A stretch of 64,000 nucleotides of DNA from Bacteroidota bacterium (GCA_036675075.1 JAKFFM010000039.1:13010-77009), one strand, 5' to 3'; numbered from the stretch's first letter, positions 13,252-61,664 are shown. Numbers and translations are program-made. Notes: generated by a model from the sequence alone, not told the origin.

Positions 13252-14478
13252 ATGAAGAATCTTTTAGATCAGTTTGAAAATAAACGTCCGGAAATCGTAT
13301 TTGAATGGAAGGATGCGGAAAGTGAAGCGGAAGGCTGGGTGGTGATCAACTCGTTACGTGGTGGTGCTGCAGGTGGTGGAACACGCATGAGGAAAGGACT
13401 TGACCGTCGTGAAGTGGAATCTCTTGCAAAGACAATGGAAGTGAAGTTCACCGTTTCTGGCCCTGCGATCGGCGGTGCGAAGTCAGGTATCAATTTCGAT
13501 CCTGCTGATCCAAGAAAAGCGGCTGTTCTCAGAAGATGGTATAAAGCGGTGATGCCTCTGCTGAAGAATTATTACGGCACAGGCGGTGACCTTAATGTTG
13601 ATGAGATCCATGAAGTGATCCCTATCACCGAAGATTTCGGATTATGGCATCCACAGGAAGGCGTTGTGAACGGATACTTCTCTCCTAAAGAAAATGAAAA
13701 GATCCATAAGATCGGTCAGCTCAGAATGGGCGTTTCAAAAGTGCTTGAGGATGCAACGTTCTCTCCTGACCTGAATAGAAAATATACCATCGCTGACATG
13801 ATCACCGGTTACGGCGTTGCCGAGTCGGTTCGACATTATTACAACAGCTCTTCAGAATCAGTTGCCGGAAAGCGTGTGATCATCCAGGGTTGGGGGAATG
13901 TCGCTGCAGCAGCAGGATATTACCTCGCAGCGAATGGCGCACGCATCACAGGGATTATCGACAGAAACGGTGGTCTTATTAAACCTGAAGGTTTTTCTTT
14001 TGAAGAGATCAGTGAGTTATTCCTGAACCGTGATGGCAATGCATTGAAAGCTCCGAATATGTTATCATCTGAAGAGATCAGTAAAGCGATCTGGTCATCA
14101 GGTGCTGAAGTGTTCATACCGGCCGCAGCGAGTCGTCTGGTAACAAGAGATCAGATTGATCAGCTTATCAAAGGCGGACTCGAAGTGATCTCATGTGGCG
14201 CGAATGTCCCGTTTGCTGACAAGGAGATTTTTTTCGGACCAATTGCAGAGCATGCTGACCAGGCAGTGGCCGTGATTCCAGACTTTGTCGCGAATTGTGG
14301 TATGGCTCGTGTGTTTGCATTCCTTATGCAGGAAAAGATCGAGATCTCCGATAAAGCGATCTTCAATGATGTCTCTTCAACAATTGGTAATGCGATACTG
14401 AACATCAGGAAGAGGCACCAGGATAAAAAGAATCTTTCTAAAACAGCCTTCGAAATAGCCCTTGAACAGCTTCTCTGA
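13252..14478 (+). CDS. Glu/Leu/Phe/Val dehydrogenase family protein
   Basis: GGAAGGGTRM, MEVKF..GGAKSG, QGWGNV nucleotide-binding loop, GAN, PDFVANCG. Confidence 0.9.
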   Translation: MKNLLDQFENKRPEIVFEWKDAESEAEGWVVINSLRGGAAGGGTRMRKGLDRREVESLAKTMEVKFTVSGPAIGGAKSGINFDPADPRKAAVLRRWYKAVMPLLKNYYGTGGDLNVDEIHEVIPITEDFGLWHPQEGVVNGYFSPKENEKIHKIGQLRMGVSKVLEDATFSPDLNRKYTIADMITGYGVAESVRHYYNSSSESVAGKRVIIQGWGNVAAAAGYYLAANGARITGIIDRNGGLIKPEGFSFEEISELFLNRDGNALKAPNMLSSEEISKAIWSSGAEVFIPAAASRLVTRDQIDQLIKGGLEVISCGANVPFADKEIFFGPIAEHADQAVAVIPDFVANCGMARVFAFLMQEKIEISDKAIFNDVSSTIGNAILNIRKRHQDKKNLSKTAFEIALEQLL

Positions 14479-56915: not shown

Positions 56916-57386
56916 ATGGATTCATCATCAACAATAAGGCCCACAGCTGATCCGCTTGAAAAAGCCAGACGCTTTTGTGCATACCAGGAACGTGCACAGC
57001 AGGAAGTTCGTGACAAACTTTATGAATGGGGTTGTCACCAGGAGGAGGTGGAGAATATCATCATTGCACTCATTGAAGAAAATTTCCTGAATGAAGAACG
57101 TTTTGCGAAGACCTATGCACGCGGAAAGTTCAGGATCAAAAAATGGGGACGACAAAAGATCAAAGCATCACTTAAGTTTAAAAAGATAAGTGATTCATGC
57201 ATCCGGATCGGTCTCGCAGAGATCAATGACCATGAATATCGTGCTGTCCTGGAAGAGCTTGTTGAAGAGCGCTCAAAAAAAGAGACGGAAAAGAATCTGC
57301 TTCGAAGAAATTATAAAATTGTCAGCTACCTCATGTCACGAGGTTTTGAACCTGACCTGATCTGGGATTGCCTTAAGTCCGAATGA
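56916..57386 (+). CDS. recX: regulatory protein RecX
   Basis: FCAYQER..EV..KL, FLNEERFA, KWGRQKI, RGFE; start 56916 or 56853. Confidence 0.92.
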   Translation: MDSSSTIRPTADPLEKARRFCAYQERAQQEVRDKLYEWGCHQEEVENIIIALIEENFLNEERFAKTYARGKFRIKKWGRQKIKASLKFKKISDSCIRIGLAEINDHEYRAVLEELVEERSKKETEKNLLRRNYKIVSYLMSRGFEPDLIWDCLKSE

Positions 57387-57430
57387 CTGATGGGTGCTTA
57401 AATCTTATGATTTTAGCTATCTTCGCACCC

Positions 57431-58520
57431 ATGATCACAATAGAACAGCTGAAAGAGCTTGTAGAGCGACGTGACGCTCTGAGGGGGCATCTTTGACCTT
57501 GACAGGAAACAGAGAGAACTAGAAGAATTACAGGAAAAGACCCTGGCACCGGATTTCTGGAATGACCCCAAGAAAGCCGAAGACCTGCTGAAACAGGTAC
57601 AATCAAAAAAGATCTGGACGGATGGATTTAAAAAGGTAAGCGACAGTGTCGATGACCTTAGCACCATCTTCGAATTCTTTAAGGAAGGAGAAGCATCTGA
57701 ATCGGATGTGATGGAGCAGTACAACCTTGCTTTGAAGCTTGTTGAGGATCTTGAATTCAAAAACATGTTAAGTGGCAAGGAAGATGCGCTTAGTGCCGTG
57801 CTTACCATCAACTCTGGCGCCGGTGGTACTGAAAGCCAGGACTGGGTGAGCATCCTTCTGCGTATGTATGTGATGTGGGCTGAAAAGCATGGATTCAAAG
57901 TCGTGGAAACTGACCGTGTTGAAGGTGATGTTGCAGGCATAAAGTCTGTGACGATCCAGGTGGAGGGTGAGTTTGCCTATGGATATCTGAAAGGTGAGAA
58001 CGGAGTGCACAGGCTTGTGAGGATCTCTCCATTCGATGCCAATGCAAAACGTCATACCTCATTCGCGTCGGTCTATGCATATCCGCTGATCGATGATACG
58101 ATCGAGATCGATGTTAACCCTGGTGATATTGAATGGGAAACATTCCGCTCAGGCGGTGCCGGCGGACAGAATGTAAACAAGGTGGAAACAGCTGTAAGGC
58201 TTTATCACAAACCTTCCGGGATTGTCATTAAGAACCAGGAAAGCCGCAGTCAGCTTCAGAATAAAGAGAACGCTGTCAAGCTCCTCAAATCACAGCTTTA
58301 TGAAGTGGAGATGCGTAAGCGTCGTGAATCGATTGCAGCTATTGAGGGCAGCAAGAAGAAGATCGAATGGGGCTCGCAGATCAGGAACTATGTGTTACAT
58401 CCATATAAGCTGATCAAAGATCTGCGGACAGACCATGAAACATCGAATACCCAGGCGGTGCTTGATGGTGACCTCGATGATTTCATCAAGTCATACCTGA
58501 TGGAATACGGAAATGCCTAA
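57431..58520 (+). CDS. prfB: peptide chain release factor 2, programmed +1 frameshift at 57491-57497
   Basis: [21 protein letters not shown] then AGGGGG-CAT-CTT-TGA-C; +1 frame continues DLDRK..PDFWND into the 57708 ORF with SPF and GGQ motifs. Confidence 0.97.
57482..57497 (+). promoter_or_regulatory. RF2 autoregulatory frameshift site
   Basis: AGGGGG + 3 nt + CTT TGA C, the canonical arrangement. Confidence 0.95.
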
Positions 58521-59870: not shown

Positions 59871-61664
59871 ATGGAGAATTTTATTGTTTCAGCGCGTAAA
59901 TACAGGCCAGCAACGTTTGATACGGTTGTAGGTCAAAGTTCAATCACAACCACACTTAAAAATGCGATCAAGAATAACCATCTTGCCCAGGCATTTTTAT
60001 TCTGTGGACCTCGTGGTGTTGGAAAAACAACGTGTGCACGTATCCTTGCAAAAACGATAAACTGCTTCAATATCACCGAATCGGTTGAAGCATGTGACCA
60101 ATGTGAATCATGCATATCCTTCACACAGGGACATTCCCTGAACATCTACGAGCTCGATGCGGCATCAAATAACTCGGTGGATGATATCCGAAATCTTGTT
60201 GACCAGGTAAGGTTTGCTCCGCAGCTTGGAAAATATAAGATCTATATCATCGATGAGGTTCACATGCTTTCTCAGGCTGCATTCAATGCATTTCTGAAGA
60301 CTCTTGAAGAGCCACCCAAGCACGCGATCTTCATTCTCGCAACAACTGAAAAGCACAAAATCATTCCAACGATCCTGTCCCGCTGCCAGATCTTTGACTT
60401 CAGCAGGATCGGCATCGAAGATATCGCTGATCATCTTGCATATATTGCTGGTAACGAAAACATCACTGCTGAGCACGATGCACTTCACATCATCGCGCAG
60501 AAAGCGGATGGAGCCCTGAGGGATGCCTGTTCGATATTTGACAGGATCGTGACTTTTGCTGGTAACAACATCACCTACAAGGCAGTCATTGAGAACCTGA
60601 ATATCCTTGATTACGATTACTACTTCAAAATCACTTCACAGATCCTCAGCTCTGATATTCCGAATTGTCTTCTGACGTTTAACGAGATCCTTAACAACGG
60701 TTTCGACGGACATAACTTTACAAACGGACTTTCTGAACATTTCAGGAACCTGCTTGTGGCGCAGGATCCGATCACAGTGCAGCTTCTTGAAGTTGGAGTG
60801 AACATCAAAGAGAAATACAAAAACCAAAGTCAACAGTGTGGCAGGGATTTTCTTGTTCGCGCTCTTGAACTGAATAATAAATCTGATCTCAATTATCGTA
60901 TCAGCAAAAGCCCCCGCCTCCTGGTTGAGCTTACGCTGATGCAGCTTTGTACTCTTGCATCAGGTGTAGCGCCTATGCAGGAAAAAAAAAATCCTATAGC
61001 GCCGGCTGAGCGCCCTTTATCAACGCAACAACTGCCTGCCCAGCAGGTTCAAGTTCCTCAGGGACAGCCAGTAAAGCCTGTTGCAACGGAATTGCCACCA
61101 AGCGCCCGACCAGTTGATCCTGTCTCTGCAAAGCCATCCGAATATCCGAAGATCACAGTCGATCCTTCAGTACAGGCAGCAGAAAAAAAGCAGCCTGCAG
61201 TGGGAATGGGAGGAGCATTGTCTTTGAAAGACATGCTAAAGAAGAACAAGATCGAAGATGCTCCCGCTGATCCTGCATCTCCGGTGAACCAGTCAGCCGT
61301 GCCTTTCACTGCCGCGCAGCTTGGAAAAGCATGGAACGATTACGCTGAAAGCATGAAGAACCAGGGAAAGGTGAGTCTCTATACAACACTCATGATGAGG
61401 CAACCCGAACTTCATGAAAATTATACCGCCTTTTTTCAGCTGGATAATAAAGTTCAGGAGGATGCTCTGAAAAGTGAGATGCCTGAAATCCTGGGATACC
61501 TGAGATCGAAGCTGAACAACTATTCGCTAGTAATTAAAACGGAGATCAATAAAGTGGCAGCTGAAAAGCGTCCTTATACAGCTCAGGACAAGTACCGTCG
61601 CATGACTGAGATAAATCCTGCAATCCAGGATTTCCGTCAACAATTTGACCTTGATATAGATTAA
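59871..61664 (+). CDS. dnaX: DNA polymerase III subunit gamma/tau
   Basis: ARKYRP, GPRGVGKTT, DAASNN, IIDEVHML, SRCQ; Pro/Gln-rich linker then a C-terminal domain; internal A10 run at 60982-60991. Confidence 0.97.
   Translation: MENFIVSARKYRPATFDTVVGQSSITTTLKNAIKNNHLAQAFLFCGPRGVGKTTCARILAKTINCFNITESVEACDQCESCISFTQGHSLNIYELDAASNNSVDDIRNLVDQVRFAPQLGKYKIYIIDEVHMLSQAAFNAFLKTLEEPPKHAIFILATTEKHKIIPTILSRCQIFDFSRIGIEDIADHLAYIAGNENITAEHDALHIIAQKADGALRDACSIFDRIVTFAGNNITYKAVIENLNILDYDYYFKITSQILSSDIPNCLLTFNEILNNGFDGHNFTNGLSEHFRNLLVAQDPITVQLLEVGVNIKEKYKNQSQQCGRDFLVRALELNNKSDLNYRISKSPRLLVELTLMQLCTLASGVAPMQEKKNPIAPAERPLSTQQLPAQQVQVPQGQPVKPVATELPPSARPVDPVSAKPSEYPKITVDPSVQAAEKKQPAVGMGGALSLKDMLKKNKIEDAPADPASPVNQSAVPFTAAQLGKAWNDYAESMKNQGKVSLYTTLMMRQPELHENYTAFFQLDNKVQEDALKSEMPEILGYLRSKLNNYSLVIKTEINKVAAEKRPYTAQDKYRRMTEINPAIQDFRQQFDLDID

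Follow-up and report, generated by a model that had tools for sequence, protein, structure and literature searches.

A run of ten As at the gamma/tau boundary of dnaX in Bacteroidota, a probable site of transcriptional slippage

Introduction

Can ten consecutive As in the middle of a reading frame be the means by which one dnaX gene gives two clamp-loader subunits? The question is raised by a stretch of 64,000 nucleotides from a Bacteroidota bacterium (GCA_036675075.1 JAKFFM010000039.1:13010-77009), hereafter called the window, in which such a run (A10) stands in dnaX at the boundary between the part common to the tau and gamma forms of DNA polymerase III subunit gamma/tau and the part found only in tau. 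In Escherichia coli (E. coli), the part of tau that is missing from gamma binds the helicase and the polymerase, and gamma arises by a -1 frameshift at A_AAA_AAG with an upstream Shine-Dalgarno-like element and a downstream stem-loop. Transcriptional slippage on nine As in Thermus thermophilus dnaX was reportedly described by Larsen et al. in 2000. The purpose of a short gamma beside tau is debated, and three unrelated routes to its production are on record (bioRxiv 10.1101/2022.11.10.516041).

An earlier annotation made from the window alone, referred to below as the sequence-only reading, had proposed that this gene makes both tau and gamma by recoding, probably by slippage of RNA polymerase. 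Here the run is compared among 80 related loci. From this comparison, it appears close to certain that the A10 is a functional recoding site of some kind, and the odds are roughly three in four that it is a Thermus-type transcriptional slippage site giving tau and a gamma of about 375-379 amino acids.

Length and phase of the run in Bacteroidota

A DnaX protein scan of a species-representative genome collection gave at least 599 confirmed relatives among 600 candidate stretches, and the best 80 of these relatives, from Bacteroidota, serve as comparison loci (L001-L080). Because the six peptide words of the scan exclude the residues encoded by the run, this sample is blind to the run. The frames of each locus were fixed by local tblastn of residues 1-370 (N-terminal) and 441-597 (C-terminal), and the run was defined as the longest A run from 90 nucleotides before to 300 nucleotides after the end of the N-terminal match.

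Exactly ten As are present at the site in 61 of the 80 loci. Nine are found in two loci (L002 and L069), eleven in two (L015 and L033) and thirteen in one (L037), while 14 have no run of eight or more there, including L040, the contig of which ends before the site. Measured from the point where the N-terminal match stops, the run starts at -22 to +62 nucleotides in all run-bearing loci (65 of 66) but L014, where it starts at +271. By record assignment, the run-bearing loci fall into six classes, Bacteroidia, Chitinophagia, Cytophagia, Flavobacteriia, Saprospiria and Sphingobacteriia. Elsewhere in the 80 loci, which comprise 352,572 bases, no A or T run reaches ten; shorter A or T runs in these bases number 10 of length nine and 72 of length eight. 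An alignment of Bacteroidota dnaX genes in search of a conserved run with AAA as its only Lys codon, which the sequence-only reading had put forward as a check of its proposal, has thus come out positive.

The phase of the run is not fixed. Among the 61 loci with A10, it begins at codon position 1 in 6, at position 2 in 39 and at position 3 in 16, and therefore the encoded residues differ and the outer As fall in different codons. The flanks are hardly conserved, with at most 0.53 bits in any of the 20 columns on each side (66 loci). The comparison shows a run under very strict length selection across the six classes, and the constraint is one on DNA or RNA and not on protein.

It might be supposed that there is no recoding at all, that tau is the only product, and that the run represents either a Lys-rich linker written in a preferred codon or a mutable DNA tract for phase variation. 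Lys is written more often as AAA than as AAG in the N-terminal parts (1045 against 415), and about one A10 per 64 kilobases (kb) is expected by chance. This usage of 72%, however, is far from enough to account for an invariant ten. The outermost As belong to non-Lys codons in a variable phase, and neither the prevalence of length ten nor the lack of other runs of this length in the same loci fits such an explanation, which is already contradicted by the comparative data and is the least credible of those considered here.

Off-frame stops and the frame of tau

Both frames other than that of tau are closed within five codons past the run in 57 of 67 genes (the 66 run-bearing loci and the window), the farther of the two stops lying at a median of 4 and a maximum of 14 codons. 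At 13,400 random N-terminal positions in the same genes, both off-frames are closed within five codons in 10.9%, with a median of 17 for the farther stop. The alternative frames thus close far sooner than at control positions, which is not expected of a gene without recoding and suggests that they are closed on purpose.

The C-terminal domain of tau lies in the N-terminal frame in 47 of the 66 run-bearing loci. In 16 others, tau needs one extra A (-1 frame), and in three (L027, L044 and L047) it needs one A fewer (+1 frame). As these 19 loci read, tau is obtainable solely via recoding at the run, which would argue indirectly for a cassette that gives its two products in comparable amounts. Homologues with an out-of-frame C-terminal domain, another check named beforehand, therefore exist, and in both directions. 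Cultured isolates among the 16 extra-A loci are Flavobacterium quisquiliarum EA-12 (L077) and F. denitrificans DSM 15936 (L080), and in the latter the zero frame ends with ...GEKKKLSNS and a stop, the tau part going on in the -1 frame. Since 18 of the 19 out-of-frame loci have retained an A10 (L037 has A13), the difference in frame sits in the flanks and not in the run, unlike the residue that slippage of the run at the DNA level would leave; this again argues against a gene that makes tau only.

On a quick FastTree tree of DnaX N-terminal parts (79 loci and the window, 364 columns, the truncated L040 excluded), the tau-frame arrangement switches, by a rough count, at least 12 times, at least six of these switches being required even when only well-supported branches are counted. 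On the same tree, the presence of the run changes at least six times, by loss or gain.

The dnaX gene of the window

The gene in the window is DnaX, since its product matches a curated equivalog over the full length and above the cut-off: NF011531 (DNA polymerase III subunit gamma/tau) reaches 816.8 bits (cut-off 685) over residues 1-597, and TIGR02397 (dnaX_nterm) 437.9 bits (cut-off 250) over residues 6-360 (both NCBIfam). The Pfam domains are PF13177 (DNA_pol3_delta2; 22-179), PF22608 (ATPase lid; 185-230) and PF12169 (domain III; 245-370), in this order. The P-loop, GPRGVGKT, and an SRC motif can be recognised in the translation. Relatives give tblastn matches to residues 441-597 in their C-terminal parts. 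In its N-terminal part, the protein is 58-75% identical to those loci that are matched over the full length, and 85% identical to L040, which contributes 254 amino acids.

The sequence-only reading had placed the run at codons 371-374, where the clamp-loader core ends and a Pro/Gln linker begins. The ends of PF12169 and TIGR02397 agree with this: the A10 stands one codon past the end of domain III, at 62% of the length of the open reading frame (ORF), with a Pro/Gln-rich linker downstream. The reading frame of 597 amino acids is confirmed by the ORF listing, and a count of homopolymers shows that no other in the window, whichever the base, is as long as the A10, the runners-up being one A8 and one T8. 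The span quoted around the run was correct in sequence and wrong in its start coordinate, as an ATG, codon 369, starts at 60975 and the CAG of the quotation three bases later, at 60978. The lengths, ends and stops of the two shifted products were reproduced by reading the sequence and by a script, the gene giving 597 amino acids as it is, 379 with one A more and 375 with one A fewer (Table 1).

Table 1. Features of dnaX and its A10 run in the window
Feature	Position	Strand	Product or extent	Basis
dnaX, tau form, zero-frame ORF	59871..61664	+	597 amino acids	ORF listing, NCBIfam, Pfam
Part common to tau and gamma, clamp-loader domains I-III	59871..60981	+	residues 1-370 and base 1 of codon 371	
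A10 run, proposed slippage site	60982..60991	+	begins at codon position 2 (GAA AAA AAA AAT)	
TAG closing the +1-frame product (A9 mRNA; A12 gives one Lys more)	60997..60999	+	predicted gamma of 375 amino acids, ends EKKIL	
TGA closing the -1-frame product (A11 mRNA or -1 ribosomal shift)	61007..61009	+	predicted gamma of 379 amino acids, ends EKKKSYSAG	
Tau-only part, Pro/Gln-rich linker and C-terminal domain	60992..61664	+	residues 375-597	translation; tblastn; NF011531 spans full length

Level of the shift

In the proposed mechanism, the A10 would be a programmed recoding site that allows one dnaX to give two clamp-loader subunits. RNA polymerase would realign the nascent RNA on the ten-base homopolymer, the length of which is about that of the RNA:DNA hybrid, to produce a pool of mRNAs in which A10 is accompanied by A11, A9 and other lengths. 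Those with A10, or with three As more or fewer, would be translated into tau, those with A11 would be terminated at the TGA to give a gamma of 379 amino acids, and those with A9 or A12 would be terminated at the TAG to give one of 375 or 376. Such a gamma would retain the ATPase domains I-III and be devoid of the tau-only part. An event at the level of the polymerase predicts the pattern seen, namely a fixed length of ten, independence of phase, two directions of shift and unconserved flanks. Shifts in two directions are also the criterion for transcriptional realignment in Antonov et al., 2013 (PMC3711429). By homology, the dnaX of the window itself would yield gamma. The earlier proposal of tau and gamma by recoding, probably through polymerase slippage, is supported by both comparative tests; the transcriptional level of the shift, its efficiency, the short protein and its use in the clamp loader are what we infer.

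Alternatively, the mRNA might be homogeneous and the ribosome might undergo programmed -1 frameshifting on the in-phase A_AAA_AAA (60983-60989) in the style of E. coli dnaX, to give a gamma of 379 amino acids. The -1-frame stop six codons past the run is suitably placed for this, and 16 relatives require exactly this direction for tau, but three require the opposite one. Seven bases would be sufficient for such a shift, yet a length of exactly ten is found in 61 of the 66 runs. L056 and L017, two relatives that lack the A10, have an apparent E. coli-type cassette at the same place, so that the phylum may use ribosomal shifting; on the other hand, A_AAA_AAA has been reported to be far less shift-prone than A_AAA_AAG in E. 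coli (PMC5009743), and ribosomes of Bacteroidia have been reported not to recognise Shine-Dalgarno sequences (PMC9976891).

Stimulators of translational frameshifting were also searched for around the run, fold z-scores over the 67 genes being taken from mononucleotide shuffles. In the window, the 60 nucleotides downstream of the run have a z of 0.00, with 97 of 200 shuffles folding as well, and the 60 nucleotides upstream have a z of -0.40. The mean downstream z over the 67 genes is -0.09, against -0.15 in controls. A downstream stimulatory hairpin, being absent both in the window and on average, was dropped as a candidate, in agreement with the sequence-only reading, which had seen no strong one. 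The Rfam DnaX frameshift element has no match in the window between 60700 and 61300 at E up to 10, and none at the gathering score in 18 loci, where the sole match is a tmRNA in L024. At the run of the window the E. coli-type A_AAA_AAG is absent, the in-phase heptamer being A_AAA_AAA without AAG, and no conserved Shine-Dalgarno-like element is found about 10 nucleotides upstream in the 66 loci. The lack of a conserved hairpin, of conserved flanks and of an Rfam element, together with the fixed length, makes ribosomal -1 frameshifting an unlikely sole explanation.

Separately from these searches, a 9-base-pair hairpin, CUGAUGCAG...UUGCAUCAG, is seen in the window at 60936-60963, ending 18 nucleotides before the run, with a minimum free energy of -10.9 kcal/mol and a z of -2.53 for borders chosen by eye. 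It was considered as a hairpin of the type that assists slippage, for which the mean upstream signal over the 67 genes is weak, and it may reflect the conserved helix encoded by this stretch.

Sliding of the ribosome on poly(A) is a further alternative: the frame would be lost in either direction on consecutive AAA codons, and translation would be terminated at the nearby out-of-frame stops. Sliding of this kind is on record for the ribosomes of E. coli (PMC4363877); it requires no particular phase, depends on the length of the run and goes in either direction, as in the observed pattern. The truncated product in the same article, however, is robust at A11 and slight at A9 and A10, whereas here 61 of 66 runs are A10 and only three are longer, and sliding is accordingly regarded as very improbable.

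Several observations weigh against transcriptional slippage at the A10. The run is absent in 13 of the 79 informative loci, 10 of which are Bacteroidales, and is thus not universal. Within the window alone, the A10 is compatible with chance and not significant: dinucleotide-preserving shuffles of the window contain 0.90 A10 or T10 on average and at least one in 48 of 100 cases. Significance inside the window was therefore dropped as an argument, and the A10 is raised above chance because it is conserved in other genomes. An A10 holds an in-phase X_XXY_YYZ heptamer, A_AAA_AAA, in every phase, so that ribosomal -1 shifting could add to slippage. Over the 67 genes, folding is slightly more stable than in controls in the 45 nucleotides that precede the run (mean z -0.78 against -0.15). 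All three +1-direction loci are metagenome-assembled genomes, in which a miscalled homopolymer is conceivable, and 25 of the 77 inner branches of the DnaX tree have support below 80, which makes the switch counts rough.

Relatives without the run

Some of the loci without the run have other candidate devices at the gamma/tau boundary. L056 has an apparent E. coli-like cassette (2613-2665), in which GGAGGG (2613-2618) is followed after 9 nucleotides by an in-phase A_AAA_AAG (2628-2634), a -1-frame TGA (2637-2639) and a hairpin about 5 nucleotides downstream, with a minimum free energy of -16.9 kcal/mol and a z of -2.15 (6 of 200 shuffles as good). In L017 (Pontibacter rugosus; 1250-1305), a purine-rich stretch precedes an in-phase A_AAA_AAA (1267-1273), a -1-frame TAA follows immediately, and the hairpin about 5 nucleotides downstream is not significant (z +0.26). 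Neither cassette is matched by Rfam, even with E values up to 10.

Three gut or rumen Bacteroidales (L045, 2593-2650; L071, 2593-2650; L073, 2596-2653) have no A run and carry an in-frame TAG at the boundary, at residue 366-367, with tau going on in the same frame. The TAG lies in a block, CATAGATTGC(A/T)AGG, that has one variable base among the three loci, while its surroundings diverge. In the genome of L073, TAG is an ordinary stop codon, because dapF, which adjoins dnaX, terminates in TAG. The block is a candidate for programmed stop-codon readthrough in dnaX, a process of which a literature search of titles and abstract openings found no description. The consensus fold downstream of the TAG in the three loci is weak (-3.39 kcal/mol, 7 pairs).

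In L046 (about 2640-2660), the zero frame closes at a TAA (residue 383) within GGGAGTGCTAAAAATCC, and the tau part goes on in the +1 frame with no long run, which may reflect +1 shifting at this place, a misassembly or a defective gene. Four Bacteroides or Bacteroidaceae loci (L020, L025, L055 and L065; about 2590-2650) have a single-ORF dnaX with no run, slippery heptamer or early off-frame design, and share a motif past domain III, G-(R/G)-(S/K)-P ... (I/L)-(K/R/H)-P-(I/V)-F.

A wider reading, which is possible as a whole although we would sooner bet against it than on it, would join these observations to slippage at the A10. The Bacteroidota A10 would be a frame-agnostic switch, at which RNA polymerase adds or drops an A so frequently that the essential tau can be accommodated in any frame. 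Lineages would have switched arrangement a dozen times or more while holding the run at exactly ten, a length that would fill the RNA:DNA hybrid and stay one A short of the A11 needed for robust ribosome sliding. In lineages that have lost the run, it would appear to be replaced at the same codon by an E. coli-like -1 cassette (L056 and L017) or, in the three Bacteroidales from gut or rumen, by the in-frame TAG block, which would add stop-codon readthrough as a fourth way of producing gamma and tau.

Neighbouring genes and annotation

A second recoded gene is present less than 3.5 kb from dnaX. The prfB gene of the window (release factor 2; 57383-58520, + strand), 3.4 kb upstream of dnaX, has a classical +1 programmed frameshift site at 57482-57497. 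Its short ORF (57383-57496) ends ...RGHL at CTT TGA C (57491-57497), with AGGGGG (57482-57487) 3 nucleotides upstream, and the main release factor 2 frame extends to 58520.

In L040, which is the closest of the best 80 loci and is cut by the contig end, a stretch on the minus strand (6-368) is 46% identical to the C-terminal part of tau. It lies about 1.1 kb upstream of the start of dnaX on the opposite strand, and either a misjoined contig or a second copy could explain it.

In Flavobacterium sp. 81, the protein encoded by dnaX (P0007) bears the NCBI name 'LOW QUALITY PROTEIN'. No fused tau at least 90% identical to that of F. denitrificans was found, and its -1-frame C-terminal ORF gave 194 matches with longer proteins at E<=1e-20, the best at 78%. 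The joined F. denitrificans tau shows no sign of having been annotated, and annotation seems to take an out-of-frame tau for an error and not for recoding. In about one quarter of the sampled species, dnaX has the look of a broken gene, though in all likelihood this arrangement is normal. The recurrent changes in the frame of tau also provide a natural experiment on the slippage efficiency required of the polymerase and on the gamma:tau ratio that is tolerated.

Comparison with known systems

In E. coli dnaX, as in the window, the same gene is divided at the same boundary past domain III, and gamma ends a few codons past the shift. The window differs from E. coli in having no AAG, conserved upstream element, downstream hairpin or Rfam match. 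In Caulobacter crescentus, gamma is produced from DnaX via partial proteolysis by ClpXP (bioRxiv 10.1101/2022.11.10.516041). There too two forms come from one gene, but the event is post-translational, and nothing points that way in the window; by analogy, proteolysis of the ClpXP type could apply to the Bacteroidaceae loci that lack the run.

Thermus thermophilus dnaX is the closest parallel. Slippage occurs there on A9, tau is encoded in one ORF, and stops are close in both other frames (PMC1088944; PMC5009743). The window likewise has a sense-strand run of nine or more As at the gamma/tau boundary, a single zero-frame ORF for tau, and nearby stops in both other frames, so that any change of the run by other than a multiple of three would give gamma. 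It differs in that the run has ten As and not nine, that the phylum is another one and that the window is known from sequence alone; moreover, in relatives of the window gene one type of run serves tau in any of three frames.

An A10 in dnaX has already been reported. Antonov et al. (2013) collected 17 two-ORF dnaX genes in a GeneTack cluster, exactly ten As being present in nine of them, and proposed transcriptional realignment (PMC3711429); these poly-A dnaX genes are cited also by Sharma et al., 2014 (PMC4066793). In that arrangement, which is matched by 16 of the 80 loci here, it is tau that depends on the shift, gamma being read in the zero frame. The window shows the reverse, its N- and C-terminal DnaX parts sharing one frame. 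According to Sharma et al., 2014 (PMC4066793), the method of Antonov et al. is blind to single-ORF cases, and cases of slippage that shortens the product were omitted by Baranov et al., 2005 (PMC1088944). Outside Thermus, a literature search found poly-A recoding of dnaX only in Antonov et al., 2013 and in reviews citing it, and it found no other account of dnaX recoding in Bacteroidota; in PMC3971599, dnaX appears in a gene table only. The window gene thus adds a member to the slippage class, which thereby gains one in a large and ecologically important phylum, and the phylum-wide fixity of the run at ten, together with the repeated switching of the tau frame around it, may go beyond the published record.

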